From contig DAOWGI010000072.1 of the NCBI GenBank assembly GCA_030637655.1, positions 1 through 55,216 on the forward strand: a DNA stretch of 55,216 nt. Reading direction: 5' to 3'. Made by a program: the position numbers and the translations under genes. The notes under the pieces were generated by a model. That model did no database searches. It was given only the letters and a program-made list of their open reading frames with translations, and was not told the origin of the DNA. How positions within the stretch are numbered: position 1 is the stretch's first letter; each line of letters begins with the position of its first letter. Source of the stretch: a candidate division FCPU426 bacterium (lineage in GTDB: Bacteria > Oederibacteriota > JAAXVQ01 > JAUVAV01). This document shows positions 7,769-34,153 of the stretch, in pieces.

Positions 7769-8695
7769 CTAGCGTTCGATTTGCACTAAAAACGCCTCAA
7801 TGGCTTTAATCACTTCGCCTTGACTGGTTTTGTAAAGGGTTAAAAGATGCCGGTTATGTTCCCAATTTGTCAGATCAAATTCTTTGGTCTGAATTACCTG
7901 GGATGAAACCTTATTGGCAATATAAGCCATATTCTCAAAAAGCGCGGATTTATCCCCTTTGGAATGCATAATAAGGATCGGCGCCTTTATTTGTAATAGT
8001 CTTTTCCGTGCCTGATACATGCCCATTTTCAAACTATAGACTTGTTTACAATAATTTTTGCCTTGATACCAAAAGTGTTCTGCTCCATCCTCATCCACTT
8101 CAGGTTTAATTTCATCAATCTCCGCTATTATCCATGAGATAAAACGTACCAAATAGACACGCCAATCATACAAAACACCCGCACCCAATACATTATTAAA
8201 AAAAGCCGGCGCTGCAATGGTAATAATACCATCAGGCGCTAAATCAGCATTGAATTCTTCAGCCAACGTAAGTGCAATCGTTCCTCCCATGGACAAACCG
8301 CATATATAGACCTTGTCATATTTCGTCCTCAAATCCAGATACGTATCGCGCGCACAAGCCTGCCATTGCGCAAAATATGTCTTTTTAAAATCCTTCGCTT
8401 TGGTTCCATGCCCGGGATAGAGCGGAATAACCACATTGTATTTTTCTAAAAAAGCTTCAGCCACTTTTTTAAAATCATTGGGAGAGGATTTATAACTGTG
8501 CAAAAAGAGAATAACGCCGGCTTTTTTAGGTTCAGTCAAAAACATTGGCGATACTTCGGACACAGCCCATTCCTCCGGTTTTGACACTTGATATTCTTTA
8601 GTCTCACTGTATAAAAACGGTGTTTCATTAAATAAAAAAATGATAAAACCCAGTACTATTATTACTCCAAGTATCCCCGGCAAATATTTGAACAT
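7769..8695 (-). CDS. Membrane-anchored alpha/beta hydrolase (carboxylesterase/monoacylglycerol lipase-like)
   Basis: N-terminal TM, LYPGHGT, nucleophile elbow GLSMGG, HSKGD, and a late His. Confidence 0.88.
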   Translation of the reverse strand: MFKYLPGILGVIIVLGFIIFLFNETPFLYSETKEYQVSKPEEWAVSEVSPMFLTEPKKAGVILFLHSYKSSPNDFKKVAEAFLEKYNVVIPLYPGHGTKAKDFKKTYFAQWQACARDTYLDLRTKYDKVYICGLSMGGTIALTLAEEFNADLAPDGIITIAAPAFFNNVLGAGVLYDWRVYLVRFISWIIAEIDEIKPEVDEDGAEHFWYQGKNYCKQVYSLKMGMYQARKRLLQIKAPILIMHSKGDKSALFENMAYIANKVSSQVIQTKEFDLTNWEHNRHLLTLYKTSQGEVIKAIEAFLVQIER

Positions 8696-8908
8696 TTCTC
8701 CAGCCTCCTATTTCTTATTTTATCCAATAGGCGAACATACCCAAAAGACGGGCACAGGCAAGGTTTGCCTCTGCACCATGGTAATTCCTAATCCTCTTCT
8801 GTAAAAACATTCATTTCATATTTATATAATATTCCAAAGCCTTCTTCCAGGGAAATACTTCAAACTCATCCGTGTTGATCCTCGTTCATCTGTAGTTCAC
8901 TTTTTTAA

Positions 8909-9829
8909 TTATGTATGTCTCCTGGAACTAATTAATCGTGCCATTCTCTCCCGGACAATTCGAAGCAGCCTGTCTTTTTCCTCTTCTGTCAATTTTGAAT
9001 CCAGAATCATTTCCTTAATGATTTTTTCCTGGTCTAAAAATTTGTTGGCTACGACTTTGGGCGGGATTCCAAGGTAATCAGCCAAGGCCTTAAAATCCTC
9101 GACTGTAATTTTATTCTTTTTGCCATTGATCGATAATGCCGAATCCTCTTCTCCGGGAATGAGCAATTTAGAAGAAACAATATCATACGCTGGGGCCAGA
9201 CGGATGTAATTCGGGGCGGTGTAATAAATCGAGAAATTTTTAAAATGAGCGTCGCCATTACCTATTATGAAATAAAACAATATTCTCTCAAAAAAGAGCT
9301 GTACATCCAAACCAGGAACGCTTGAAACCATTTTTAGCTTTTTCCCGATTTCCTCCACCGATCCCTGATACTTGTCTTGCTTTCCCAAAATCTGGAAAAA
9401 ATCTTCCTGGTGAATTTTTGTTTGTCCCATTCGGTCAAATCGCTTCACAAGATACGCCCAAGTTTGATCCTTTAGTCGTAACAGCATATGTGGTGGTATG
9501 TCGATTCCCAGATGAGCGGCAATGGTCATGCACAACTGTTCATTTTGAGGTAAATTCAGAAAGGTAATGACTTGCGGCTTCAATATAAATTCACCGTCGG
9601 TTGTCACAACTTCAAGCTCTTTAGTCTGCCGATTGAGGCGCATAGACAATTTAGGCTGAACCCCTGAAATAGATAGTTTCCCAGCCATTTTTTGGGCCTG
9701 AATAGAAACTTCAGCCAGCGATATATTTACTTGCGGCTGATAATTAACCTTGAAAATTTTCCGCAGACAAGCTTTGTGTATAGGTACTTCATCGGTTAAT
9801 GGTTTTCCGCAACTTAAACAACTTTCCAT
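8909..9829 (-). CDS. hipT: HipT/HipA-like serine/threonine kinase toxin (HipA C-terminal domain)
   Basis: KLSISGVQPKLS Gly-rich loop, KRFDR, HQEDF, GNGDAHFKNFS, LAPAYD. N-terminal CxxC...HxxC. Confidence 0.88.
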   Translation of the reverse strand: MESCLSCGKPLTDEVPIHKACLRKIFKVNYQPQVNISLAEVSIQAQKMAGKLSISGVQPKLSMRLNRQTKELEVVTTDGEFILKPQVITFLNLPQNEQLCMTIAAHLGIDIPPHMLLRLKDQTWAYLVKRFDRMGQTKIHQEDFFQILGKQDKYQGSVEEIGKKLKMVSSVPGLDVQLFFERILFYFIIGNGDAHFKNFSIYYTAPNYIRLAPAYDIVSSKLLIPGEEDSALSINGKKNKITVEDFKALADYLGIPPKVVANKFLDQEKIIKEMILDSKLTEEEKDRLLRIVRERMARLISSRRHT

Positions 9830-9831
9830 AT

Positions 9832-10158
9832 TTATTTCATCTCCCACACGCTCACCGCGCCAATAGTATCCTGGCAGGTCGCTAATAATAATCCAAACCT
9901 ATTGGTTTTATCGATTTTCAAGGTCGAACATACTGTATCCAGATACCAGCCTTCGGGTAATAAGCCGATAAAAAAAGGAAACAACTCTTCGTTTTCATGG
10001 ATAGATTGATTAAAAGGCATTGATACGGAAATGGAAATTTTTTTTTCTAAAAAATGCTTATCATAACTAAAACGATAACCGCCCTCGATTTCTTCCAAAA
10101 CCCCGGCACGCTCGTTTTGATAACGAATTTCCGCCCTTCTAAATTTACTCCCTTTCAT
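9832..10158 (-). CDS. hipS: HipS-like antitoxin (HipA N-terminal/couple_hipA domain)
   Basis: AGVLEE, YRFSYD, ISVSMP, FPFFIGLLPEGW, DTIGAVSV. Lies between the HTH gene and the kinase gene. Confidence 0.85.
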   Translation of the reverse strand: MKGSKFRRAEIRYQNERAGVLEEIEGGYRFSYDKHFLEKKISISVSMPFNQSIHENEELFPFFIGLLPEGWYLDTVCSTLKIDKTNRFGLLLATCQDTIGAVSVWEMK

Positions 10159-10345
10159 TTTGCACAACCTCTAAATGATATCCAAAAAATTCCAAAACCT
10201 GATTTACTTTGTCCAAACGAACCGTGGGCTTATCCCTTTCCAGCTCTCGCACAAATCTCAGACCGATTCCACAACGTAGAGCAAATTCCTCTTGCGTTAA
10301 TTTAGCCTGTTTACGTAATTCACGCACTTTTTTTGCAATATTCAC
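10145..10345 (-). CDS. hipB: HipB-like XRE-family HTH regulator
   Basis: RKQAKLTQEEFALRCGIGLRFVRELERDKPTVRLDKVNQVL. GTG start after GGAG. Confidence 0.88.
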   Translation of the reverse strand: MNIAKKVRELRKQAKLTQEEFALRCGIGLRFVRELERDKPTVRLDKVNQVLEFFGYHLEVVQNERE

Positions 10346-10376
10346 TGTGGTTCTCCAATATTTTTATTAAATAATA

Positions 10377-10503
10377 AACCCTATAGGGTACAATATCAAG
10401 ATGTTTTTTATATATTATACCCGAAGGGGTACTTCCGGAGTCTATATTTACCCTTTCGGGTACATTTTAGCAAATTAATAAACAAACAAAACCCTATCGG
10501 GTA
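10377..10503. promoter_or_regulatory. Four palindromic operators WACCC-N4-GGGTA upstream of hipB
   Basis: AACCCTATAGGGTA (10377), TACCCGAAGGGGTA (10418), TACCCTTTCGGGTA (10449), AACCCTATCGGGTA (10490). Confidence 0.8.
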
Positions 10504-10704
10504 TATTTGTACTTTCGCGGAATAATGTGAAGGGTCCTTTTATTCGATTTATAGTTGGACTATTTGTTGAAGTAAAAGTAGCTGTCGCCGCCCAACCCTG
10601 TGATACAAGTAGGGAAAGCAGATCGATAGTCAATAATGAGACTATCCAGCCCATCTTGCTTTCTTTACTTTAGCGAATATGTATAATTATTAATATTCTT
10701 TGGT

Positions 10705-12203
10705 TTATTTGATCAATACAACCTTGCCGGTCACTCTTTTATTTTCCGCCTCAATTTGATAAATATATACCCCACCCTCGCACAACCGCCCGTTTTCGCT
10801 CCGGCCGTCCCAGGTTTTTTCATTGCGAATGGTTCTCACTACCTGTCCCCGAATATTCATGATGCGTATGGTAATCCCGGCATTGGTATCATGCAGCTGA
10901 AAGTTAAAATACACGGTTTGCCCTGCAGCCGGTATAAACGGATTGGGTGTGGCATAGCCTCCCTTGTGAAATGGTTCTACTGTCGGAGTCGTGTCCCTAA
11001 AAACCAAGGTACGATGATTATATGTATCAGAAACATAAATCAAGTCACTATCTGCCACAACATCCGATGGATAGAAAAGCGTGGTGGCGTTTAATTGCCC
11101 GCCCTTATTGCTTTTTTTATAAGCTATGGTTTTTTTTTTTGCCCGATTACCATGTCCGCCTGGGCATTGTTTGTCTCTGGAATGGTATTATAGATCAGCA
11201 CCCGGTTATTGGCCTGGTCTGCGATAAAGAGCCGGGTGTCCTGAATACATAGTCCGGCAGGTAAACAGAGCGTACGGCTGGTTGGGGGATAGTTAAAATA
11301 ATCCCATTCTTTCTGATCTCCAGACTGCTGATTGGGAGCACAGGAGTACATATCCGGCTGCCCGATGACAATATCCGCGCCGGCAAAATTGTTATTGGGA
11401 ATCGAACTATAGATCAACACCCGGTTATTAAATGAATCAGAGATAAAAAGGCGCTGATTATGATAATAAACCACATGCGGTTGATGCAATCCTTTCGGTC
11501 CGACATCCCCGTTATAATTATACCTTTTCCCGGAAAAATCCGGCTGCCCGATCACCACATCCGCCTGTGCATCATGCGTTGTGGGGATGTTGTTGAAGAT
11601 CAGTACGCGGTTATTATACGCGTCCGCGATAAATAATTTCTTACCGTCTGAAGCCACACACATGGGATAATACAAGGTATGGCTATCCGGCTCATCCAGG
11701 CCTTGGTTGGGAGAATTCGATTGCATATCATTCTGACCGATCACAATATCCGCTGAAGCGCCATTTGTGGTGGGAAGGTTATTATAGATCAACACCCGGT
11801 TGTTTTGAGCGTCTACTACAACTAATTTGTTGTCAGCGATAATCATTTTAGTCGGTTTACTCAACCGGTTTGCTTTAGGCGGATCCGCAATGGGAGATAA
11901 AGCATAATCTTCCCAGCCGATGACAATATCAGCGGCCGGATAACTTGCATAAGGCACGAGACTGTATATTAATATCCGTTGCCAATCAGTATCTGCAACA
12001 AACAATTGGGTGTCTGTCTTGAACAAACCTGTGGGTACTTTCAAATGATAGGCATCAAGCTGGTCAAGGCTGCTGGTAAAATCAGGCTGACCAATGACAA
12101 AATCAGCAGATTGGTTGTCAAAATAGGCCAAGGCCTTTAACGCCAATATATGCGAAATTATACAAGCAATAACCAGCAAGTACGTTCTTCTCACAAGTCC
12201 CAC
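10705..12203 (-). pseudogene. Secreted NHL-repeat beta-propeller protein with FlgD/T9SS-like C-terminal domain, split by a frameshift in an A11 run
   Basis: ORF 12203..11124 has a signal peptide and repeats of LFIADxxNNRVLIYN...ADIVIGQPD. After the A11 tract (11130-11140) another frame continues the repeat (TIAYKKSNKGGQLNATTLFYPSDVVADSDLIYVSDTYNHRTLVF) into ORF 11058..10705 (PNPF...WDGR...GVYIYQI...GKVVLIK). Confidence 0.85.
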
Positions 12204-12493
12204 CTTTTATGCCCACTATTTAAGCAATATTATTTTTCCGCAATAACAATTAAAATTTAGGTCAGATTATATTCTTTTTCATTGAAATGCACAAGAAAGA
12301 TGTTGATTTTTTTGGGCAATTCATTGGATGAAGTTCGTGGATTCAAGGTCTCAATGAGTAAGTTGAAAAGTTTAGAAATCGACCGTCAGAAACAGTATAT
12401 CCGTTTATTTTAGTTGATGCATTATATGAAAAAGGACGGATGGAGATATCCTGCCAGTGCAGTAATGGTGGCGTTTGGCGTAAATGAATCCGT

Positions 12494-12532
12494 AAAAACG
12501 GGGCGGATTTCCTTTGCTCGAAAATCCGCCCC
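12494..12532 (-). terminator. Rho-independent terminator closing the 21.2-12.5 kb gene run
   Basis: Minus strand GGGGCGGATTT-loop-AAATCCGCCCC followed by GTTTTT, just after the stop at 12545. Confidence 0.75.
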
Positions 12533-12544
12533 TAGGCGCCAAGC

Positions 12545-14968
12545 TTATTTCACTACCGCAATTTTGTTCCGCTGCACAAAATCTTTGGCGCGGATTTCCA
12601 GAATGTAGATGCCGCTGCTCACTTCATGGCTTAGCTCATTGGTCCCGTTCCAGGTATAGGTGTAAAATCCAGGAGCCAGCACTTGGTCTTTGACAATAGT
12701 CTTGATCCTTTCCCCAACCAAATTATACAAACTGACATTTACCGTACCACTCTGGCTGATATCAAGGTAAATATCGCAGGTTGAATTGTTGCGGTTGATC
12801 AGATTTTTCCTGACCCGGCAATCCATGCTATCCGGCGGCGCAACTCCCAGGATTAATTTTCTGGTCAGACTATAACTGGACCTCATGTCCAATTCATCTA
12901 TACTGTATGCCCGCCAATAGTATATTCCCGGCGATAAGTCTGTGATCTCCACCGCGGTTTCTGCATTATTCCCTGTTAAAGCAGTACTATTATATTCAGC
13001 TAGCAAATGATTGAGTTCCGGATCAGTATAAAGTTGATAAACCACGCTCCCTTTATTCGGCGCTGTTTCCGGGTTTTCTTGATAGGTGGCTGTCAAACGT
13101 ACTACTTTAACCTTCAAACTTGCGTCTGCTGCCGGACTGACCAGTTGCGGCGGATTAGCGTATTCTGCAGATAGTGTAAACTTTCTTGAAGCGCTAAAGT
13201 CGGATTTTATACCTTCCTGGTCCACACTATAGGCCCGCCAATAATATCGGCCTGGCGGTAAACCGCCCACGCTCACTGATGATTCCAAACCATGATCTAC
13301 CATGGTTTGCCCAATGAATTCTTTGACTTGCACAAACTCAGGATGAGAAGACACTTGATATGCCACCTTGCCTGGTTGAGGCGAATCAGGATTTTCATGA
13401 TATTTGGCGGTTAGCTTGACCACCTTGACAGCCAATGTTTTGTCAGCATGCGGACTGATTAATTGAGGCGATTCAGCATAAACCAGTTCTACTTTGGCGG
13501 GAGTGGTTTTTTCTGATGACAAACCCAGACTATCCACGCACCAGGCACGCCAGTAATAGATGCCATAGCTTTGAAATCCCTGATTAAGTTCTGCCCAATT
13601 TTTTTTGGAGTTCAGTACTTCACTGTAGGAGCCGGCTTCTATATTTGAAAAGTCCATAGACTTGCTGATTTCAATATAGATGCGGCCACGGGTAAGGGTT
13701 GGCGGCAGTTTTACTGAAAACTTCACTGCCCGGGATGGATAGTACTCACCGGATTTGGGTTTAATAATCTCAGGTTGATCCGGCTTGGGTATTTCGGGTA
13801 TATGGAAATATTTGCCGGCTTGAATTAACACTGACGGTATCTCAGACCCAGGAGAAAATATTTTGACTGTGCCGCCATTTTTTGCGCTTGTTGAGGTAGT
13901 CCATCCACCGCCTTTGCTGTAAATAAACCCATTAAACCATTCTTCCTGAACTTGGGGACAAAAAAGTAGTACACCGCCGCCGGCGCCATGACCACCATCG
14001 CTCCCGCGGCCACCGCGACCGCCACTTCCACCTTTACCTCCGCCATAAGAATGCCAACCCCAGTAGTCCTTCCATCCTGCTTCTTTGTGCCCCCCGGCTC
14101 CGCCATATCCGCCACTGCCCTGGCTGCCGGATTGGCCGGAAACATCAATTATGCCATGCATGATTAATTTTTTTGTGGCAAATAATTTAACCAATGAACC
14201 GCCATTTCCGCCTTTGCCGCCTCTGCCACCACTGCCGCCTCTGCCGCCATGTCCACCTACCTTATAACCAGCACCAATTCCACCGCCGCCGCCACCGCCG
14301 CCGCCGGCTCCACCACCGCCGGCTCCACCGGCTGAACCTCTGTAAACAGTCAAGTCGTTATTTCGTTTCTCAGTATTATCAGCAATACCAACATAGCCGC
14401 CATTTTGTCCTGAGCGTCCTATACCATGACCACCCCTTCCTCCACTTCCTCCTGATGCCCAGGTTGATGAACGACCGCCACTTCCATTATTGCCTGAATA
14501 ACCCCAGCCTCCCTCACCACCATATAGCCCCTCGCCTCTGCGACCCTGTGTTGCAGCCCCGCCGCTTCCTCCGGAGTTACCATCCCAATGGCCTGCTCTT
14601 CCTCTCGTACCACCGCCACCGCCAGGGGCTCCACTCGCTCCATCAAATCCTCTATACGCTCTGCCAACACCATCAATTTTTCCTTCCAGTACTATCTCAT
14701 TAGCATAGAGTTCCAAAGTACCGGTTGCTGAGAAGGTATTACCATTGTAGGTCTGTACAAATAAAGTTGCATCCTGTGCGATATGCACTTTATCGTAAAA
14801 CCACTTGCCATACTTGGTTTCAGTCCCGGATTCAAGCCTGAGTTCGCCTTCATAGATGCCGTCTTGATTTCCCGAATCGATATTGTTTGCTGCTGCCGAG
14901 ACCTGCCAATTACCTGCCAATCCCAATAGAGCTATACATGTTATTATTGTTTTAATATATGTTCTCAT
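12545..14968 (-). CDS. Secreted glycine-rich protein with three Ig/FN3-like repeats and a FlgD/T9SS-like C-terminal domain
   Basis: Signal peptide, a long GGxGGxG-rich region, three ~100-aa repeats each with GxYYWRA, and C-terminal LYNLVGERIKT...WNGTN...SSGIYILEI...KIAVVK. Its ATG overlaps the upstream stop (ATGA). Confidence 0.8.
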   Translation of the reverse strand: MRTYIKTIITCIALLGLAGNWQVSAAANNIDSGNQDGIYEGELRLESGTETKYGKWFYDKVHIAQDATLFVQTYNGNTFSATGTLELYANEIVLEGKIDGVGRAYRGFDGASGAPGGGGGTRGRAGHWDGNSGGSGGAATQGRRGEGLYGGEGGWGYSGNNGSGGRSSTWASGGSGGRGGHGIGRSGQNGGYVGIADNTEKRNNDLTVYRGSAGGAGGGGAGGGGGGGGGIGAGYKVGGHGGRGGSGGRGGKGGNGGSLVKLFATKKLIMHGIIDVSGQSGSQGSGGYGGAGGHKEAGWKDYWGWHSYGGGKGGSGGRGGRGSDGGHGAGGGVLLFCPQVQEEWFNGFIYSKGGGWTTSTSAKNGGTVKIFSPGSEIPSVLIQAGKYFHIPEIPKPDQPEIIKPKSGEYYPSRAVKFSVKLPPTLTRGRIYIEISKSMDFSNIEAGSYSEVLNSKKNWAELNQGFQSYGIYYWRAWCVDSLGLSSEKTTPAKVELVYAESPQLISPHADKTLAVKVVKLTAKYHENPDSPQPGKVAYQVSSHPEFVQVKEFIGQTMVDHGLESSVSVGGLPPGRYYWRAYSVDQEGIKSDFSASRKFTLSAEYANPPQLVSPAADASLKVKVVRLTATYQENPETAPNKGSVVYQLYTDPELNHLLAEYNSTALTGNNAETAVEITDLSPGIYYWRAYSIDELDMRSSYSLTRKLILGVAPPDSMDCRVRKNLINRNNSTCDIYLDISQSGTVNVSLYNLVGERIKTIVKDQVLAPGFYTYTWNGTNELSHEVSSGIYILEIRAKDFVQRNKIAVVK

Positions 14969-16275
14969 AATTCCTCCTCATTATTCTCCGTTTTAGCGTG
15001 TTTATATATAACCGCGCTTGGTTTTTTACCCAAATCACGGCTAATGCTTAAAACTTCTGCAATAGATTGCGAGACATTGGCCTCCTGAATACGAATGCCT
15101 GCCACTGCCTGGCCGGCTGCATTGACAATCACACCCTTGTATCCCACTTGTATTCCCTGGCTATGCCCGGCATTGAGCAGTACGCCTGATACCCGGCCGC
15201 CGGTTTTCTCCACTTGCAGAATTTGGGCAGGGATTTTATTAATAGCTTGGTCCGGTTGCTGAACCTGCTTGTGATAATTGGAAATATCCAGCTCTTGTTT
15301 GCCTTGAGCTTGTTTTTTATCTTTGGTTGTTTGCTCAGGCAATTTATTGATCACATAAGTCAGGCCGGCCCTATGCGTGTGGTTCAAAGCACCTGTCAGG
15401 TTAAAAGCATAATCCAATTGCATACCTTCCAAGCGAAGACCAACACCTAAGGTGAGCCCCTGGACGTCATGCCCAAATTTATATCCGCCGCGTATGGCCA
15501 CCTGATCCATTATCATGAGCTCTGCTCCAACCTGCTGTTGCCAGTTTTCCTGTAGATCGCATTGCACATCAGCTGCCAGCAAAAGCCCGAGTTTATCCCC
15601 TTCCAGTACCTGACACGCCGCGCCGGCAGAAGCAGTCAGGGGTAGATCAAAGGGTTGTTCCACATATTTCATGGGCGTGCCGATGTTTTTGATCACAGCA
15701 CCAATTGCAAGATTGTCCAACATGCTGTCCAATTGCCACCGAAATCCTATGTCTCCGGCAACTGACACGGCAGAATATTGGTCCAATAAAGTGGAATGAA
15801 GTAATTTGAGATTAATTCCCACATCAATCGGTTCATTTAAAAATCCGGATTTATATGCCAAGGTTATATTCGCTAAAATATCGCGCTGGGCATTAAAGCT
15901 CGAAATCCGCCCATTGGCATCGATCAGGTCAAATTGCCCGGCATCGTAAATGAGCACAGAACCACCCACAGCAAAGGTTTGGCTGAGATTGGCGGAATAA
16001 TTAAATGCCCCATACATGTCTTCCACCAGACCGCGATAAGCTACTGCAGATAATGCTTGTTGTTTGCTGTCTACCAAACCAGCGGGATTGTAACTTAAGG
16101 CCCCGTCCTGATTGACAATGGCTGCTGTCTGAGCACCGGCCATGCCATCAGCTCGCGGGCTAAAGTGGTTTTTCAAAATAACTCCTGAACTACTGCCATA
16201 ATCACCAGCTTGTGCCAATGAAATGGTCAAGCTAAAACCTATAAGTACTGCTGCACAACAAATTCTTTTTTTCAT
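14965..16275 (-). CDS. PorV/PorQ-family outer-membrane beta-barrel with C-terminal FlgT-C-like domain
   Basis: Signal peptide, SPRADGMAGAQTA...YNPAGL, NIGTPMKY, AIRGGYKFG, LDYAF...THRAGLTY. Extra tail VLLNAGHSQGIQVG. GGAGG RBS before ATG 16275. Confidence 0.78.
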   Translation of the reverse strand: MKKRICCAAVLIGFSLTISLAQAGDYGSSSGVILKNHFSPRADGMAGAQTAAIVNQDGALSYNPAGLVDSKQQALSAVAYRGLVEDMYGAFNYSANLSQTFAVGGSVLIYDAGQFDLIDANGRISSFNAQRDILANITLAYKSGFLNEPIDVGINLKLLHSTLLDQYSAVSVAGDIGFRWQLDSMLDNLAIGAVIKNIGTPMKYVEQPFDLPLTASAGAACQVLEGDKLGLLLAADVQCDLQENWQQQVGAELMIMDQVAIRGGYKFGHDVQGLTLGVGLRLEGMQLDYAFNLTGALNHTHRAGLTYVINKLPEQTTKDKKQAQGKQELDISNYHKQVQQPDQAINKIPAQILQVEKTGGRVSGVLLNAGHSQGIQVGYKGVIVNAAGQAVAGIRIQEANVSQSIAEVLSISRDLGKKPSAVIYKHAKTENNEEEL

Positions 16276-16300
16276 GGTTAGCACCTCCTGTAAGTTTTGT

Positions 16301-17413
16301 TTAACTGCCTAAGCGCGCATTCATTTTCAGGCGCTGTTCCCGGGCCTGCGAGTTCAGCGGAATGTGAATGTAGATATATAAAAAGGCCGCAACATCGATT
16401 TTTTCCTGTTCGGAATCAAATTTCGGATAGACCTGCTGCAAGGTATGAATCGTGGAAGCATCCAGGCAACCATTGATTTCAAGCTGATATCCGTAGAGAT
16501 TCAACCATTCCTGAGCCATGGCAATGGTTTCCCCAGAGGTTAGATAGGAATAATAATCAGCCAGTGCATTGAGTACGATCCGGTCCGGAGCCGCCTTGTC
16601 TCCGAGCAACCGCCAATAGGGGAGCATCAAATGCTTTCCCACAATCTGAATCATGGAAATCTCAACCAACACTCTCACTGCCGCATGCCGGCCTTGGACT
16701 TTTTTCACCATACCTTTGGCGCCAAAACTCTGTCCAAACAGACTAATACCCAGTTCACTGTCACCCATAACCTTATGCACTGCCATGGTATTAGTGGTAT
16801 TCATTTTGGAGATACCGGTCATGGTGCTAAAATCCAGGAGATTAAAATCCAAGGTGATCCTGGCCATACCTCGTTTTTCCGCCCCGCCATAGCGCATATC
16901 AAATCCTTTGGACGGCAGGCTATCCGGCAGACCGGTAAATTCCGCTTCTGCGTTCAGATCCGTATTGGAGCCGCGGACTTCCAGACCACGGTCAAACTCA
17001 GTAATCCCTCCGGACAAGATAACATCCGGGATCTCAATGCTATTGAAGCTGGAATACCCGGTTACCACCTGACTTTGCATAAAACCGGGATCATAGGGAA
17101 TAAACACCACTTTCCCACCGATTGAATTGAGCGTGCTTTTCATAATCTCGGTGATGTCACGCTGGACTTCCCCTCCGGTGGAAACGGAAGTGCCGGTACG
17201 ATCACCAATCGGCTGGCTCTGGATTTTCAACAGAGGTGTATCATAGATCTCACTCATCATCCCAAGATCATTCAGAGCCGGTGTATAGTTGGTGGTTTTA
17301 ATCTCAGGCGCTGACTCCGGCAAACTGACATCCAGACGTCTGGGATCAAGTGTGGTACAGCCCGAAATTACACACATAAGCCATACTAGTGTTAATTTGA
17401 ATATGATCTTCAT
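16301..17413 (-). CDS. CsgG/HfaB-like outer-membrane lipoprotein with C-terminal peptidoglycan-binding-like domain
   Basis: Lipobox VISG|C. IGDRTG resembles the CsgG DxTG motif; also ILSGGITEFD, ITLDFNLLD, AAVRVLVE. Tail AQEWLNLYGYQLEINGCLDASTIHTLQ resembles PG_binding_1. GGAGG RBS before ATG 17413. Confidence 0.72.
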   Translation of the reverse strand: MKIIFKLTLVWLMCVISGCTTLDPRRLDVSLPESAPEIKTTNYTPALNDLGMMSEIYDTPLLKIQSQPIGDRTGTSVSTGGEVQRDITEIMKSTLNSIGGKVVFIPYDPGFMQSQVVTGYSSFNSIEIPDVILSGGITEFDRGLEVRGSNTDLNAEAEFTGLPDSLPSKGFDMRYGGAEKRGMARITLDFNLLDFSTMTGISKMNTTNTMAVHKVMGDSELGISLFGQSFGAKGMVKKVQGRHAAVRVLVEISMIQIVGKHLMLPYWRLLGDKAAPDRIVLNALADYYSYLTSGETIAMAQEWLNLYGYQLEINGCLDASTIHTLQQVYPKFDSEQEKIDVAAFLYIYIHIPLNSQAREQRLKMNARLGS

Positions 17414-17454
17414 GAGTACACCTCCTGTCCTGTTCGTCGTACTAGTGATCCTTT

Positions 17455-17871
17455 TCATTTGTCCACCACCACATTGATCACCGTGTCGATTTTGCTGCCA
17501 GGTTCGATTACAATGCTGTTCTCATTGTTGTCAACCTTGTCATCGCAATAATTGAGACGTAAATCTTTTTTAGCGTTTCGCGCATTTTTGTCTGCCTGGT
17601 TATCAGTTTTTTTATCTTCCTGATCAGTCTGCAAACCTTCTTTGATTTTGCGCATAGCTTGGTATCTTGAGGCTTTGGCTTTGCCAATAGCATATGTGAT
17701 GATGTAATTAATATTGGTATCTTTGTCCCCCAGTTTGTCGTCCGTCGCAATGGGCTCGTCTTTAAACTCTGAAATACCGTCCTTAAAATCATTGGCCCAA
17801 GCCGATGCTACTCCAATCAGAACTATCGCAATCATCATGGCCGGCATTTTATTACAACCTGATTTCAGCAT
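17455..17871 (-). CDS. Small secreted hypothetical protein, possible fibre assembly or adaptor factor
   Basis: Signal peptide ending AWA|ND, a charged middle, and a beta-prone tail NENSIVIEPGSKIDTVINVVVDK. Located between the repeat genes and the CsgG-like gene. Confidence 0.7.
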   Translation of the reverse strand: MLKSGCNKMPAMMIAIVLIGVASAWANDFKDGISEFKDEPIATDDKLGDKDTNINYIITYAIGKAKASRYQAMRKIKEGLQTDQEDKKTDNQADKNARNAKKDLRLNYCDDKVDNNENSIVIEPGSKIDTVINVVVDK

Positions 17872-17913
17872 GATTCACCTTCTTCTGGTTTTCTCAGCAC
17901 ATCCGGAACGGTT

Positions 17914-17938
17914 GATAACCGCCCCGGATGCGGTTATC
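17914..17938 (-). terminator. Stem-loop directly after the 167-aa repeat gene (partial terminator or mRNA stabiliser)
   Basis: GATAACCGC-7nt-GCGGTTATC, with no long U-tract. Confidence 0.5.
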
Positions 17939-17945
17939 CTAGTAT

Positions 17946-18449
17946 TTATTCGATGCAAATTGATCCCATGTTAGCCTCAGCGTCTTTCCCGATCGCTGCA
18001 TTGACTACTTCCTTGGCATTGACATCGTTGCTAATCAAACCCGTTACTTCAGCATTTACAATGTCAATAGAACCCATATTGGCTTTAGCATCCTTACCAA
18101 TTGCTGCATTGACTCCTTTTTCAATTTTGACCTTGTTCATCACAGTTCCTTTGATCTCGCTATTCTCCAAGCTGATGGAACCCATATTGGCCACAGCATC
18201 TTTACCAATCGCTGCATTTACCACTTCCTTCAACTGCACTTTGTTGCTGACCACACCTTCACTACCCACGCTGGTGTTCTTCAGCTTAACTGCCCCCATG
18301 TTGGCGATAGCATCTTTACCAATGGCCGCATTCACACCTTTCTCAATATCCGCTTTGTTGGTAATGTCACCTTTCAATTCCAATTTGGCCCAGCCGGCCC
18401 CGGCCATTCCCAAACTGATCATCATGGTGAGTAAAATTATTTTTTTCAT
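17946..18449 (-). CDS. Secreted 167-aa repeat protein (4 x ~36-aa NAAIGKDAxANMG repeats), putative beta-solenoid fibre subunit
   Basis: AAGGAG RBS and ATG 18449. Signal peptide ending GWA|K. Four copies of VNAAIGKDAxANMG(S/A) spaced 38/36/36 aa. The mature part lacks Pro and aromatic residues. Confidence 0.8.
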   Translation of the reverse strand: MKKIILLTMMISLGMAGAGWAKLELKGDITNKADIEKGVNAAIGKDAIANMGAVKLKNTSVGSEGVVSNKVQLKEVVNAAIGKDAVANMGSISLENSEIKGTVMNKVKIEKGVNAAIGKDAKANMGSIDIVNAEVTGLISNDVNAKEVVNAAIGKDAEANMGSICIE

Positions 18450-18517
18450 TTTGAAGCTCCTTGTATTATTTTTCTTTTCTACGGCATACGCCGCACTCAT
18501 GCTGTCTTACTTCGCAT

Positions 18518-20143
18518 TCATTTAAAAACCACTGAGTCTTTATTGGATTGACCACCTCCTGTCGAAATATTCACATTTTGTGCGCTGACATCCGCAAACG
18601 GCATTTTGATGCTGTTAATCACCACTCCGGTTGCAGAGGTATTCATCGCCGCACCCCCGCTGTTTGAATTTTTCATCACCACGGATCCCAAGTTGGCTGA
18701 GCTGCCGGATCCTACCGCTATGTTGGTCGCCGTGACTCCGGTGACAGCATTCATGATCATGCCGTTGTACTCACTGTCTTCCAGAACCACAGACGCCAAA
18801 TTGGCTTCCACGTCTGATCCCACGGCAATGTTGGTCAAGACCGCGCCGGCTGCCACGTTTATGACAGTTCCATTCAAAGTACTGTCTTCCATTTTGAGTG
18901 CTGTCAGATTGGCGGTTGCTCCCTGGCCGATCGCAATATTGGTCGAAAGTCCGGCAGCATTGGCATTGAGTACACAGCCCATAACCTGGCTGTCTTGCAT
19001 ACTGACCGCGGCCTGATTTGCCTCTACATCGCTGCCAATGGCAATATTGGTCAGCAAACCTGCAGCCTGGACATTGACCACATTACCAATCAATTCGCTG
19101 TCATACATAGAAACTACGGCCTGATTCGCTCTAACCTCATTGCCGATTCCTATATTGGTTACCAATCCCCCTGCCTGGGCATTGACCACATTACCAATCA
19201 ATTCACTCTCATTCATGGACACTGCAGCCTGATTCGCTCTAACCTCATTGCCGATTCCTATATTGGTTACCAATCCCCCTGCCTGGGCATTGACCACATT
19301 ACCAATCAATTCACTCTCATTCATGGACACTGCAGCCTGATTGGCTTTCACCTCATTGCCGATCCCAATATTGGTTAAAAGCCCGCCGGCTTGCGCATTC
19401 ACCACATTACCGGTAAGTGCGCTGTCATCACGCATTTCAACTGCAGCCTGAGCAGCTGACACTTCATTGCCTATACCGAGATTGGTCAAAAAACCGCCTG
19501 CCTGGACATTGACCACATTTCCCGTGATTTGACTGTCTTGAACAATGGTGGAATTCTGATTGGCAGCAATCGATTTTCCGATACCAATGTTTGTAATTAG
19601 ACCGCCAACCTGAGCGTTGATTACATTGCCCTGAACCCGGCTGTTTTGAAAATGCGAGGACGTCTGACGAGCCGATACTTCACTTCCGATTCCAATATTG
19701 GTGATGAGTTTTCCAGTAGAGCTGTTGACCACATTTTGAATTTCGCTGTCATCGAGCATAGTGCTGTTCTGGATGACCTCAATATCATTTCCGATACCAA
19801 CATTGAGCTGCAAATCACCTTGGGCTTGATTGACAATATTCCCCTTAACCTTACTTCCACCCGTTATACTGCTGTGCATAAAATGGGCTTTGGTTTTATT
19901 GCCTACCGCAACATTGATTTGGCTATTGGTCTGATTACTATGAACAATATTCTTTTCTATTTCGCTGTCTTGCACAACAATACTTTCCTTGGATGATTCT
20001 GAATCTTTACCGAGAGCAGCATTGATTTGTTTATCTCTAGAAAATGAATTGATCACATCACCTTTGATCTTGCTCTTAGCTGTCGTAAGTACGGGCATCC
20101 CGGTTATCATAATGATCAGTACAATGATCGTTTGAGTACGCAT
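18518..20143 (-). CDS. Secreted 541-aa repeat protein (13 full plus 1 partial ~36-aa repeats), putative beta-solenoid fibre subunit or nucleator
   Basis: Signal peptide, then repeats of consensus GNVVNAQAGGLxTNIGIGxEVxANQAAVSMxDSEL. N/Q/G/A/V/S-rich, with no Pro within the repeats. Confidence 0.82.
   Translation of the reverse strand: MRTQTIIVLIIMITGMPVLTTAKSKIKGDVINSFSRDKQINAALGKDSESSKESIVVQDSEIEKNIVHSNQTNSQINVAVGNKTKAHFMHSSITGGSKVKGNIVNQAQGDLQLNVGIGNDIEVIQNSTMLDDSEIQNVVNSSTGKLITNIGIGSEVSARQTSSHFQNSRVQGNVINAQVGGLITNIGIGKSIAANQNSTIVQDSQITGNVVNVQAGGFLTNLGIGNEVSAAQAAVEMRDDSALTGNVVNAQAGGLLTNIGIGNEVKANQAAVSMNESELIGNVVNAQAGGLVTNIGIGNEVRANQAAVSMNESELIGNVVNAQAGGLVTNIGIGNEVRANQAVVSMYDSELIGNVVNVQAAGLLTNIAIGSDVEANQAAVSMQDSQVMGCVLNANAAGLSTNIAIGQGATANLTALKMEDSTLNGTVINVAAGAVLTNIAVGSDVEANLASVVLEDSEYNGMIMNAVTGVTATNIAVGSGSSANLGSVVMKNSNSGGAAMNTSATGVVINSIKMPFADVSAQNVNISTGGGQSNKDSVVFK
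19119..19342. repeat. Exact in-frame 108-bp tandem duplication inside the 541-aa repeat gene
   Basis: 19119..19226 equals 19227..19334, and identity runs on to 19342. 108 bp is 36 codons. Confidence 0.9.
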
Positions 20144-20239: not shown

Positions 20240-20282
20240 ACAGAGAACTTTATTTCAGGGAACCTAAAATAAAGTTCTCTGT
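20240..20282 (-). other. 20-bp RNA hairpin between the ECF module and the repeat genes
   Basis: Minus strand ACAGAGAACTTTATTTTAGG-TTC-CCTGAAATAAAGTTCTCTGT. The single mismatch is a U-G wobble only on the minus-strand RNA. Confidence 0.7.
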
Positions 20283-20512
20283 TACAATGTTGCCACCATC
20301 AATCTTACTTGTTCCCATTTCTGTTCCGGATTCTGATCAGGTTTCTCCGAAATTTCAATCAGCTGACTCAGTACGGTATTTCGTTTGGCCATTGCGATCC
20401 ATTGCTTTCCGATTTCCGTCTTTTCCGTGGTTACCGCGTTTTTATAAACCAGTTTGGTAAACAGATGCCAGAATCCCAACAATTCTCTTTTTGCCTGTGA
20501 TTTATAGTTCAT
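20282..20512 (-). CDS. Small hypothetical protein downstream of the ECF sigma factor
   Basis: AAGGAG RBS before ATG 20512 gives 76 aa, helical-looking. No clear TM or HxxxCxxC anti-sigma motif. Confidence 0.5.
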   Translation of the reverse strand: MNYKSQAKRELLGFWHLFTKLVYKNAVTTEKTEIGKQWIAMAKRNTVLSQLIEISEKPDQNPEQKWEQVRLMVATL

Positions 20513-20556
20513 GGCCGCATCTCCTTGGGATAGTGTGTTCATTTCTTTCTCACCAA

Positions 20557-21207
20557 CTAACACGCAATTCTGTACCGCAAGTTCAGTTGACTCTTTGCAC
20601 CGGCAATCAACGCTTCCCGAGGACGGACAAATTGTTCCTGAATCATCCTGGCCATCATTTCTTTTGCGCGCATCAAATGCAGGCCAATGGCTCGCACGGG
20701 TCTGCGCAACAGGCCGGCGGTTTCTTTGTAGGTACGATCTTCCAGATAGGTTTTTTTCACTGCTTCATAATAAATTTCCGGCAACTGCTCAATGACTTCA
20801 TGTAATTGATCTTTTTCTTCATTAAGCACGACTTGTTCTTCCGGATTTGAACTCTTGCAAGGCAGGACTTCTTCTAAGGGCGTGTATTGCTCCGAATTCA
20901 CATAACTTAATTCGCGCAGCTTTTTACGTTTTCTGAACAATTCATTGCATTCATTGATCGCGACACGCTTGATCCACGACCACAATTTAGCTTCTCCGCG
21001 AAAATTAAATATTTTACCTTGTATAAGAATCTTCAAAAACACTTCCTGCGCCACGTCTTGTCCGTCTTCCGGCGAATGTAAATGCCGGCTGCACAAATTA
21101 ACAATGCTCTCGTGATAACGGCCATAAATCTCTTCTCCTGCTGCTGTGTTTCCCTGGCGTAAGTCATTAATTAATTCCTGGTCTGTAAGTTCTTTTAGAT
21201 CTTTCAT
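20557..21207 (-). CDS. ECF-type RNA polymerase sigma-70 factor
   Basis: TDQELI, DGQDVAQEVFLK, FRGEAKLWSWIKRVAIN (region 2) and IEQLPEIYYEAV...TYKETAGLL (region 4). Confidence 0.9.
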   Translation of the reverse strand: MKDLKELTDQELINDLRQGNTAAGEEIYGRYHESIVNLCSRHLHSPEDGQDVAQEVFLKILIQGKIFNFRGEAKLWSWIKRVAINECNELFRKRKKLRELSYVNSEQYTPLEEVLPCKSSNPEEQVVLNEEKDQLHEVIEQLPEIYYEAVKKTYLEDRTYKETAGLLRRPVRAIGLHLMRAKEMMARMIQEQFVRPREALIAGAKSQLNLRYRIAC

Positions 21208-32314: not shown

Positions 32315-34153
32315 ATGCGTCCAAAAAAAGTATCCACTTCCGTTCGTACTCACAAAAAAAAAGCCGCCTCAAGCCGTGCTAAAAAAGCAACCAACACAAT
32401 TTCCCGCAACCTTTTGTTGCCGGATAAATTATTACCTGCCTTCTTCCAAAATATTCAGCAAGAAGATTTAGTAATTTTATTTTCCCGCACCATCGAGCAA
32501 AGTCCGATCGCGATTATCATCACAGACAAGTCCGGTAGTATCGAATATGTCAATCCCAGTTTTGTTAAAATCGGCAATTGTCTTCCGAATCGTGTGGTTG
32601 GCAAAAAACTCATCGATATTCGCCAATCCGGCGTTAGCGCGGAGCTATATGCTAAAATCTGGAAGCTTATTCAAAACCACCGGTTTCGTCAAATTGAGAT
32701 TAAAATCCAGAAGCAAACCGGCAAAATTTTTCAGGAATCCGCTCGCATCCAACTTGTGCTCAATCACCATGGTCTTCCTTCCCATTTCATCATCTTCTTA
32801 GAAAATACTGCCGGACGTAAATTGTCCGAAGCTCTGATCGAACACATGGAGCATTACGATTCACTTACCGACTTGCCCAATCGCCGGCTTTTTAACCAAC
32901 GCTTACTCCAACATATTCGTGATGCGAAACAGCATAAACATAAAATCGGCATCGCTTTATTAGGTCTCGACCGTTTCAAAAAAATCAACAATACCCTGGG
33001 GCATGAAACCGGAGACTTGCTTATTCAGCAAGCGGGAAAACGTCTGCATCAAAATCTGAATCAACCTGACACCATTGCTCGGATGGGCGGAGATGAGTTC
33101 ATTCTGCTGCTGCCAAATATTAATAGTTTTCGCGAAATTTCCGCCAAAGCCAATTCCATTATGGCCTGTTTTGCCAAGTCCTTTACTATCGACAAACGCG
33201 AACTCCACATCAAAGCCAGCATGGGAATCAGTCTTTTTCCGGAAGACGGACAGAATTCCCTCGCTCTGCTTAAAAATGCCAACGCCGCGCTCAATGAGGC
33301 CAAACAATCCGGACGAAATGTATTTAAATTTTACACGGCTAAATTGAATGCCCTGGCAACCGAACAATTATCCCTGGAAAACGATCTGCGTCGGGCACTG
33401 GAGAATAATGAGTTTTTACTTTTTTATCAGCCACAAGTTAATTTCAAGACAGGAAATATAGTAGGTATGGAAGCCTTAGTGCGCTGGCAGCATCCACATC
33501 TGGGTCTGCTACCTCCGGACAAATTCATCCCCTTAGCCGAAGAAACCGGCATGATCGTTGCCTTAGGTCATTGGGTGCTGCGTACTGCCTGCCAACAAAT
33601 CTTGCTTTGGCATCAAGCTGGATTTCCACATTTGCGTATGTCCGTCAATCTTTCGGCACGGCAATTCCAAGAACCGGAATTGGTCGAGAGTATTCTTGGC
33701 ATTTGCAGTGAAACCGGATTAGATCCCCGCTTTTTAGAATTGGAGATTACGGAAAGTATATTTACCAAAGACATACATATCACCAACATGATACTCCAGT
33801 GGTTGCACAAAAAGGGCATTACTATCGCAATCGACGATTTTGGGACCGGATATTCTTCGCTCACCTATCTCAAACGTTTTCCCATCAATACTTTAAAAAT
33901 AGACAAATCGTTTGTGCAGGATTGTTTGATCAACCAGGATGACGCTGCCATCGTATCCACTATCACCTCGATCGCACATAATTTAAAAATGCATATCACT
34001 GCCGAAGGCGTGGAACAACAAGCGCAATTGAATTTCCTGCGCAATCTGGGATGTCATAATTTTCAGGGGTTTCTTTTTTCCAAACCCGTGCCTTATACTG
34101 ATTTCACAATATTATTGGTTGAAGGCCGTTCGTTGGATAACCCCACAGCATGA
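32315..34153 (+). CDS. PAS-GGDEF-EAL diguanylate cyclase/phosphodiesterase
   Basis: PAS (IEYVNPSF), DSLTDLPNR, GGDEF, EALVRW, DDFGTGYSS, LKIDKSFV. Confidence 0.95.
   Translation: MRPKKVSTSVRTHKKKAASSRAKKATNTISRNLLLPDKLLPAFFQNIQQEDLVILFSRTIEQSPIAIIITDKSGSIEYVNPSFVKIGNCLPNRVVGKKLIDIRQSGVSAELYAKIWKLIQNHRFRQIEIKIQKQTGKIFQESARIQLVLNHHGLPSHFIIFLENTAGRKLSEALIEHMEHYDSLTDLPNRRLFNQRLLQHIRDAKQHKHKIGIALLGLDRFKKINNTLGHETGDLLIQQAGKRLHQNLNQPDTIARMGGDEFILLLPNINSFREISAKANSIMACFAKSFTIDKRELHIKASMGISLFPEDGQNSLALLKNANAALNEAKQSGRNVFKFYTAKLNALATEQLSLENDLRRALENNEFLLFYQPQVNFKTGNIVGMEALVRWQHPHLGLLPPDKFIPLAEETGMIVALGHWVLRTACQQILLWHQAGFPHLRMSVNLSARQFQEPELVESILGICSETGLDPRFLELEITESIFTKDIHITNMILQWLHKKGITIAIDDFGTGYSSLTYLKRFPINTLKIDKSFVQDCLINQDDAAIVSTITSIAHNLKMHITAEGVEQQAQLNFLRNLGCHNFQGFLFSKPVPYTDFTILLVEGRSLDNPTA

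Follow-up and report, generated by a model that had tools for sequence, protein, structure and literature searches.

The window analyzed here, a stretch of 55,216 nucleotides (nt), comes from a candidate division FCPU426 bacterium (assembly GCA_030637655.1, contig DAOWGI010000072.1, forward strand 1-55,216). The seven sequencing runs listed for it come from cold-seep metagenomes and are marked, as a guess, as being of the DNA type; none is listed as RNA. An operon on the minus strand of the window contains, in order, genes for an extracytoplasmic function (ECF) sigma factor, a doubtful small open reading frame (ORF), a long repeat protein (L), a short repeat protein (S), an RNA hairpin, and genes for a small secreted protein (p138), a lipoprotein, a PorV-like barrel, and an 807-amino-acid (aa) protein, followed by a terminator-like hairpin. 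S and L share a 36-residue repeat, and the module that encodes them suggests that they may be structural subunits of a surface fiber.

An earlier sequence-only reading had proposed that two neighboring genes of the window encode chemically contrasting subunits with a common repeat. Both ORFs lie on the minus strand at the coordinates that it gave, and the shared 36-aa repeat is present in four copies in S and about 13 copies in L. L (18518..20143, minus strand; 541 aa) consists, by its ORF and repeat register, of a signal peptide, about 13 repeats (the first three of them degenerate), and a nonrepeat tail of about 50 aa that ends in ...SNKDSVVFK. Tandem Repeats Finder detects the corresponding 108-nt (36-aa) period in L at 19044-19411 (3.4 copies, 89% matches). 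S matches two regions of L with E values of 1.6e-13 and 3.6e-13, and the sharing of the repeat is therefore not due to chance. The gene for S is listed as an ORF of 184 aa (17946-18500, minus strand); because AAGGAG stands 8 nt ahead of an ATG at 18449 and homologues begin at the same point with MKK..., the S precursor is most likely 167 aa (17946..18449). It comprises a signal peptide ending in GWA and four 36-aa repeats, the last of which ends at repeat position 35 (...ANMGSICIE). The N-terminal signal peptides of both S and L are of the Sec type.

Several compositional features had been attributed to these proteins. Mature S is indeed aromatic-free, given the start at 18449, since this start leaves Y5 and F16 untranslated and W37 falls within the signal peptide. 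The repeats contain no proline, also as proposed; L has two prolines outside the repeats, the first in the signal peptide and the second in the tail. The single cysteine near the C terminus of S exists but is not a conserved feature, as none of the other 12 sequences in the S alignment has a cysteine in the same column. The contrast between the two subunits runs in the proposed direction, with S the more highly charged protein in 13 of 15 L/S pairs and L the richer in asparagine plus glutamine in 11 of 15, but its size is only modest.

To describe the repeat itself, we used a profile iterated over all collected loci (803 repeats in 104 ORFs). The consensus reads S1-x-V-x-G5-x-V-x-N9 ... T-N18-V-A20-I-G22-x3-x-A27-N28-(Q/M)-G30-S31-V-x-M-(K/E)-(N/D)36, in which S1, G5, N9, N18, A20, G22, A27, N28, G30, S31, and N/D36 are conserved. 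Successive repeats are spaced by exactly 36 residues in 561 of 699 cases and mostly by 37 to 39 residues otherwise. Where three conserved asparagine positions had been claimed, the profile shows four Asn/Asp positions (9, 18, 28, and 36), about 9 residues apart. Hydrophobic positions (3, 7, 19, 21, 32, and 34) alternate with polar ones, and the hydropathy of the repeat has a period of 2 to 2.4 residues. Internal self-similarity is best at shifts of 9 to 10 residues, not 18, and an 18-residue half-repeat was not favored over a 9-residue subperiod. Covariation among 470 unique repeats (effective number, 231) is led by i,i+2 pairs (19-21, 17-19, 6-8, and 10-12), as expected for β-strands; longer-range pairs (20-25-29 and 7-32) also covary, too weakly to define a topology. 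These patterns fit β-strand-like repeats in a strand-and-turn architecture with asparagine at the turns, from which we infer that the S and L repeats may stack as a β-solenoid.

The ends of S-type and L-type proteins are distinctive. In a set of 52 S-type proteins with at least three repeats, the first repeat begins, at repeat position 1, at median residue 23, straight after the signal peptide. The repeat match reaches the last residue (model position 35) in 34 of these proteins and ends 1 to 3 residues and model positions earlier in the other 18. Mean scores are 39.2 bits for first repeats, 42.1 bits for internal repeats, and 41.8 bits for last repeats. Because S-type proteins begin and end at repeat boundaries and their terminal repeats score like internal ones, S has no N- or C-terminal caps. 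In 19 L-type proteins, the first repeat is weaker than the rest (29.7 versus 37.6 bits), and in 18 of them the last repeat is followed by a tail of 41 to 50 nonrepeat residues. The tail of L is kept in 7 of 8 aligned homologues and in the 19 L-type proteins, which come from several phyla; even those of distant taxa end alike (...GG.SNKNSVV(F/Y)K). The largest L-type proteins have 1515 to 1698 aa and 23 to 32 detected repeats. With S ending on a repeat boundary and L in its 50-aa tail, neither subunit carries a C-terminal anchor domain.

Searches for known families placed neither protein. S matches no Pfam family at an E value of ≤1 and no NCBIfam model; L likewise has no NCBIfam match, and Pfam returns only two unrelated subthreshold matches to domains of unknown function (DUF). 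PDB sequence searches with an S profile and with a single-repeat profile gave no match, nor did the Pfam curlin repeat model (Curlin_rpt) match S or L. Membership among the curlin subunits CsgA and CsgB was also rejected on the repeat itself, since those proteins have a repeat of about 19 to 23 residues that forms one strand-arc-strand rung and the period here is 36, with an inner asparagine subperiod of about 9 residues. We similarly rejected the pentapeptide repeat proteins (PF00805): S and L of the window have no match, 36 is not a multiple of 5, and A-N-(L/M/Q)-G-S is the only segment of the repeat that fits the A(D/N)LXX motif, which in that family recurs in tandem with four copies to a coil. 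When seven L homologues were scanned with the Pentapeptide model, one exceeded the whole-protein cutoff (at locus L046) and one gave a subthreshold match (L022). The former, a 972-aa L-type homologue (L046:3236-6154, plus strand), scores 29.9 bits (E = 4e-7) as the sum of many weak A-N-x-G-S matches, none of its individual stretches being significant. Neither S nor L matches a sorting domain of type IX secretion system (T9SS) cargo in NCBIfam (TIGR04183 or related), and Pfam scans of S, L, and the seven L homologues found no trimeric autotransporter head repeats (Hep_Hag/YadA-like) and no adhesin family.

The repeat family has few members among known sequences. When 5.8 billion clusters were searched by a word index, 6 matched, and a HMMER scan of 1.84 billion representatives yielded 225 at an E value of ≤0.001 (83 at ≤1e-10 and 15 at ≤1e-30), many of them fragments. 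Where database names are given, members are called "hypothetical protein."

The lipoprotein encoded downstream (16301..17458, minus strand; 370 aa from a probable MKIIF... ATG start) combines a lipobox cysteine with a probable, distantly CsgG-like domain and a peptidoglycan-binding-like domain. The cysteine, with a hydrophobic leader before it, is kept without exception in one alignment of 8 homologues and in another of 120, giving the protein the lipoprotein signal of the CsgG family. We identified 892 relatives at an E value of ≤0.001, named "hypothetical" or, in longer forms, "DUF4384 domain-containing"; one named homologue is from Desulfuromonas thiophila, which we take to be a cultured species. 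Subthreshold CsgG matches (E ≤ 1; best E, 1.2e-4) occur in 30 of 92 lipoprotein homologues and fall on profile positions 91-180 of 210. When four homologues were rescanned singly, two had a CsgG match, at 17.9 and 14.5 bits versus a cutoff of 20.8. PG_binding_1 matches are found in 56 of the 92 (best E, 5.9e-5). Atlas language-model look-alikes of homologue P0049 are clusters that are 96 to 99% CsgG plus PG_binding_1 (score of 0.91, 175 to 176 shared features), with a "CsgG/HfaB family" cluster as a weaker look-alike (0.81). PDB sequence searches with the lipoprotein profiles found nothing for the N-terminal domain and a single peptidoglycan-binding protein (5tv7; E = 0.43). These matches make a distant kinship of the lipoprotein with CsgG, in fusion with a peptidoglycan-binding-like domain, probable but unproven.

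Between S and the lipoprotein lies p138 (17455..17871, minus strand), a small secreted accessory protein whose C-terminal motif is ...NENSIVIEPGSKIDTVINVVVDK and whose ORF overlaps that of the lipoprotein by 4 nt. Its homologues, 85 ORFs in all, share a signal peptide, an acidic N-terminal motif (D-L-D-D-G-I-S...D-E-x-I...D-x-N-I-x-F-I), a variable K/E/D-rich linker, and the C-terminal motif N-E-N-S-V-V-x-E-x-G-S-x-V-D-K-x-x-N-I-x-I-E-K, which resembles the start of the repeat, (K/E)-N-S-x-V-x-G-x-V-x-N. No Pfam family scores above its cutoff in p138.

A strong RNA stem-loop separates the S gene from p138 (17898..17932, minus strand). Its minimum free energy is −26.6 kcal/mol (z = −4.39), none of 200 shuffled sequences folds as well, and it lacks a U-tract. 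The 80 nt past the last repeat gene fold at a z score of ≤−3.5 in 11 of 14 other loci, several with U-tracts; L025, L038, and L067 have no strong hairpin there. Pilin-type operons have an analogous arrangement, in which the subunit is made in excess over the machinery. The strong hairpin after the S gene, together with this analogy, suggests that S is also produced in excess.

To determine how widely these genes occur together, we searched with the lipoprotein, taking one genome per species; 118 relatives were confirmed, and 80 loci were kept. All but one of these loci are titled as metagenome-assembled genomes (MAGs), and the titles name Nitrospirota, many Desulfobacterota, Nitrospinaceae, Myxococcales, Chromatiaceae, and other Gammaproteobacteria. 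By ORF clustering, repeat proteins are present in 72 of the 80 loci and p138 in 56, where it separates S from the lipoprotein; most often, the repeat gene or genes come first, then p138, and then the lipoprotein. S, p138, and the lipoprotein thus form a conserved three-gene core across several phyla. Seven further loci from five genomes have S, p138, the lipoprotein, and a PorV-like gene in the same order, six of them with an L-type gene as well; in L025, the seventh, L is missing and a single S-type gene is present. Within the window's phylum, the module has a patchy distribution: 6 of 41 related genomes contain S, and the lipoprotein was found in 6 of the 99 genomes searched across the phylum. 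The carriers are the same six genomes in both cases, all from the order to which the window belongs. Because the carriers are kin, we count this co-occurrence as one observation rather than six.

One of these seven loci is a second, paralogous copy of the module in the window's own genome (L023, G000:C95:15000-27356, locus coordinates 7810-12328). There, an L-type gene cut by the contig end is accompanied by an S of 165 aa (48% identical), p138, and a lipoprotein (60% identical). Downstream, an extra domain (201 aa) and a PorV-like barrel (317 aa) are separate genes.

The two repeat genes differ in how regularly they occur. Among 79 loci in which repeat genes could be classified, 32 have S only, 13 have L and S, and another 3 carry an L-type gene (patterns ?L?S, L?, and L); a single locus pairs an unclear gene with S (?S), and in 18 the repeat gene is merely S-like or unclear. 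L-type genes are thus found in 16 of 79 loci, and many S-only loci have ample upstream DNA. In the 15 loci with an L-type gene and a second repeat gene, the second gene, S-type in 14, adjoins p138 in every case. This classification and the position of S next to p138 indicate that the universal subunit is S, with L added in particular lineages. The suggestion that the short protein is the major subunit therefore fits comparative genomics, with S in nearly every locus, always beside p138 and usually followed by a hairpin. The companion suggestion was that L is a nucleator or spacer; an obligatory nucleator is not supported, as L is optional where S is universal, and its conserved nonrepeat tail is easier to reconcile with a terminal, anchoring, or capping role.

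The operon has further genes on either side. The first encodes the ECF-type sigma factor (20557..21207, minus strand; Pfam Sigma70_r2, 1.4e-10; Sigma70_r4_2, 7.6e-10; Sigma70_ECF, 4.5e-5), and loci L019 and L024 likewise have a sigma gene immediately ahead of L. The small ORF that follows (20282..20563, minus strand) is 93 aa as listed, with an ATG near 20541 as its probable start; it has no Pfam or NCBIfam match, other loci show no homologue of it between sigma and L, and it may not be a gene. Plus-strand ORFs at 17953-18525, 18606-19016, and 18995-19378 overlie the repeat genes in antisense orientation and are most likely not genes.

Downstream of the lipoprotein lies a gene for a PorV/PorQ-family outer-membrane barrel with an extra C-terminal domain of about 110 aa (14965..16284, minus strand; NCBIfam PorV_fam, 126.5 bits versus a cutoff of 90). 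No lineage other than the window's has the PorV-like gene beside the lipoprotein. Among the 80 loci, 7 are labeled with this gene, 5 through a full-length barrel gene, all within that lineage. The extra C-terminal domain is a separate ORF in L021, L023, and L026 and matches nothing beyond its own orthologues; the C-terminal extension seen in longer forms of the lipoprotein is not similar to it. The last gene of the operon overlaps the PorV-like gene by 4 nt, is translationally coupled to it, and encodes a secreted protein of 807 aa (12545..14968, minus strand) with a T9SS-type sorting-domain-like tail. This protein has a Gly-rich region (residues ~100 to 360) and three repeats of about 100 aa, each with YYWRA(W/Y); it scores 22.2 bits (E = 9.9e-5) against TIGR04183 (T9SS type A sorting domain; cutoff, 23) and matches no Pfam family at an E value of ≤1e-5. 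Only its last ~70 aa are common to the genes at the same position in L019, L020, and L025. A terminator-like hairpin with a T-run (12500..12532, minus strand; a 13-pair stem with 8 GC pairs, then GTTTTT) probably marks the end of the operon.

In most other lineages, the genes downstream encode a protein of ~120 aa, an LPP20-like protein (weak match), a protein of ~100 aa, a DUF2807 (GIN-domain) protein, and a protease of the HtrA type that contains PDZ domains; L028, L037, L038, and L041 are examples. The DUF2807 protein of these lineages is of the β-helix type. Desulfobulbus-like loci also contain a von Willebrand factor A (VWA) protein, and two of their ORF clusters look, on an impression of the sequence, like a sigma-54 activator and a Ser/Thr kinase. 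Elsewhere in the window, just past the operon terminator, is a gene for a 359-aa secreted NHL-repeat protein with a recurring A-D-(I/V)-V-I-G-Q-x-D motif (11124-12203, minus strand). Two nearby genes for PAS-GGDEF-EAL proteins (32315-34153 and 36050-37903, both plus strand) place cyclic di-GMP signaling genes in the neighborhood, and a protein with a HipA-like C-terminal domain (8909-9847, minus strand; Pfam, 4.7e-47) is possibly a toxin-antitoxin kinase.

Since the widespread module encodes a probable distant CsgG relative beside them, S and L are probably building blocks of a new surface fiber. In its full form, the reading that we prefer regards S and L as the structural subunits of an export and assembly system that is curli-like (type VIII-secretion-like) but uses an unrelated family of subunits, with S polymerizing and L terminal or anchoring; on the sequence evidence, we give it an even chance. 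Several results weigh against it. The CsgG homology of the lipoprotein is below every formal threshold: the lipoprotein of the window has no Pfam family at an E value of ≤1, and a six-frame search of the window's genome with PF03783 (E ≤ 10) did not recover it. Aligned by hhalign with E. coli CsgG, the lipoprotein alignment gives an E value of 0.0022 over 183 columns in register from the lipobox but a probability of 13%; against an 11-sequence CsgG alignment, the E value is 0.014 and the probability is 3.1%. The S alignment reaches probabilities of only 2.6% and 2.9% with E. coli CsgA and CsgB, and there through the signal peptide alone, and p138 has no similarity to CsgE, CsgF, or CsgC in the same kind of comparison (probability of ≤0.4%). 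The repeat data are compatible with a rung length of 36, 18, or 9 residues. No repeat gene was called upstream in 12 of the 79 loci, and three S relatives (P0001, P0003, and P0006) have 40 to 70 aa of nonrepeat sequence before the first repeat. The Atlas model of a stored homologue, P0129, is poor (predicted template modeling [TM] score, 0.52; predicted local distance difference test score, 0.59), and its structural neighbors all have TM scores of <0.5 (pentapeptide, 0.37; leucine-rich repeat, 0.39; unnamed cluster, 0.49); these neighbors may hint weakly at a solenoid, and we do not count them as evidence.

Other arrangements of the same parts deserve consideration. S and L might be exported by this machinery and yet act singly, as nonpolymerizing β-solenoid rods on the cell surface (adhesins, spacers, or a coat) with a length set by repeat number. 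L-type proteins of 1515 to 1698 aa with 23 to 32 repeats would already be fiber-like as one chain, homologues differ greatly in their number of repeats, as is the case for many repeat adhesins, and the NxAIG-x2-A-x-A core of the S/L repeat presumably recalls the head repeats of trimeric autotransporter adhesins. What makes such rods unlikely in our view is S: proteins of this type begin and end on repeat boundaries with neither cap nor anchor, four repeats that expose an edge at either end would tend to aggregate unless meant to stack, and the hairpin after the gene suggests a product in excess over the machinery. Nor did any Pfam adhesin family match. The structure could also be periplasmic or otherwise internal to the envelope, with repeat proteins that polymerize in or line the periplasm and a lipoprotein that serves as a peptidoglycan-bound scaffold rather than a pore. 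Not every CsgG/LpoB-type lipoprotein is a channel, and this arrangement would accommodate the subthreshold CsgG homology, the peptidoglycan-binding-like domain (with its PG_binding_1 matches and the profile match to 5tv7), and the LPP20-like proteins and HtrA-like periplasmic protease added in other lineages. We nevertheless think it improbable. The weak CsgG matches fall on Pfam profile positions 91-180, which we take to include the membrane hairpins of the CsgG structure; the look-alike clusters of P0049 are CsgG-plus-PG_binding proteins; and the window's lineage has, in translational coupling downstream, a gene for an outer-membrane barrel.

That barrel raises one more route, in which S and L would be cargo of a PorV-dependent, T9SS-like pathway and the lipoprotein would have no part in their export. 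The PorV_fam score of the barrel and the near-threshold TIGR04183 score of the 807-aa protein put plausible components of such a pathway in the operon. We regard this route as very improbable, as S and L have no sorting-domain match, the PorV-like gene adjoins the module only in the window's lineage, and S, p138, and the lipoprotein are the core everywhere else.

The curli-like reading is best judged against the systems it resembles. Curli and Fap are, in the review PMC12822426, the only two dedicated Gram-negative functional-amyloid export systems that serve as paradigms. Like curli of E. coli, the module encodes two paralogous Sec-exported subunits with imperfect Asn/Gly-rich repeats and no caps, the less regular one first and the regular one second, and it sets a small secreted accessory protein beside an outer-membrane lipoprotein that weakly resembles CsgG; a dedicated regulator lies upstream. 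According to PMC10192328, open-ended β-solenoids without capping domains polymerize, and this lack of caps is the property that allows curli subunits to do so. Unlike curli, the repeat here has 36 residues and four asparagine positions, compared with about 20 residues in CsgA (PMC12822426). Curlin_rpt matches neither S nor L, the hhalign comparison with CsgA and CsgB picks up nothing more than the signal peptide, and p138 bears no relation to CsgE, CsgF, or CsgC. The lipoprotein stays below the Pfam cutoff for CsgG and carries a peptidoglycan-binding-like domain. L, the subunit encoded first, is optional and can be very large, its tail is unique, and PorV-like and T9SS-tail genes are attached in the window's lineage.

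Fap of Pseudomonas (FapB/FapC, with the FapF barrel) also has two repeat subunits and an outer-membrane β-barrel gene in its operon. According to PMC12822426, the repeats of FapC are imperfect, have many conserved Asn/Gln residues, and each make up one complex β-solenoid layer (a Greek key), which makes imperfect Asn-rich repeats a further point of likeness; those repeats are parted by long flexible linkers, whereas S and L repeats abut at 36-residue spacing. The barrel here, in contrast, is PorV/FadL-like and lineage-specific, and the conserved envelope protein is the lipoprotein. No Pfam or NCBIfam model matched S or L, and FapB and FapC were compared by description only. A further, possible parallel is the holdfast anchor HfaA/HfaB/HfaD of Caulobacter, in which a CsgG/HfaB-family lipoprotein is encoded beside small secreted curlin-like polymerizing proteins. 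We do not know of a 36-aa repeat in Hfa proteins.

If S and L are subunits of a curli-like fiber, they would leave the cytoplasm via Sec, and the lipoprotein, as a distant CsgG homologue, would form the outer-membrane conduit, seated on peptidoglycan through its C-terminal domain. S would pass this channel unfolded, fold outside the cell into β-strand rungs held by Asn ladders, and join head-to-tail onto the open end of the previous subunit; the hairpin would permit S output in excess over the machinery. p138 could play a CsgF- or CsgE-like role, its acidic N-terminal motif binding the channel and linking it to the fiber while its repeat-start-like C-terminal motif (...NENSVV.E.GS.VDK..N...) presents or caps the first rung. 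L, in some lineages only, would form one end of the fiber as an anchor, tip, or long spacer. In the window's lineage, the PorV-like barrel and the protein with the T9SS-like tail would be additions to this operon.

We found no published description of this module in full-text literature, supplementary tables lying outside the search; nearly all records are titled MAG, and so it has probably escaped experiment. More tentatively, and as a possibility that we do not rate as probable, we propose that the module represents a third, phylogenetically broad class of fiber or functional amyloid beside curli and Fap, defined by a universal uncapped subunit with 36-residue rungs and four Asn ladders, a peptidoglycan-anchored CsgG-type channel, its own accessory protein, and, in some lineages, a giant tail-bearing second subunit. 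If this is true, a third system that joins an unrelated repeat to a related channel would make the CsgG-type route a general platform for exporting stackable repeat proteins, and a rung of 36 residues with four Asn positions would be a new geometry for structural biology. It would also mean that an unstudied matrix component exists in the sulfate-/metal-reducing and nitrite-oxidizing lineages that dominate anoxic sediments, and that the matrix of aggregates or consortia of anaerobic bacteria in sediments and seeps may be built with it.

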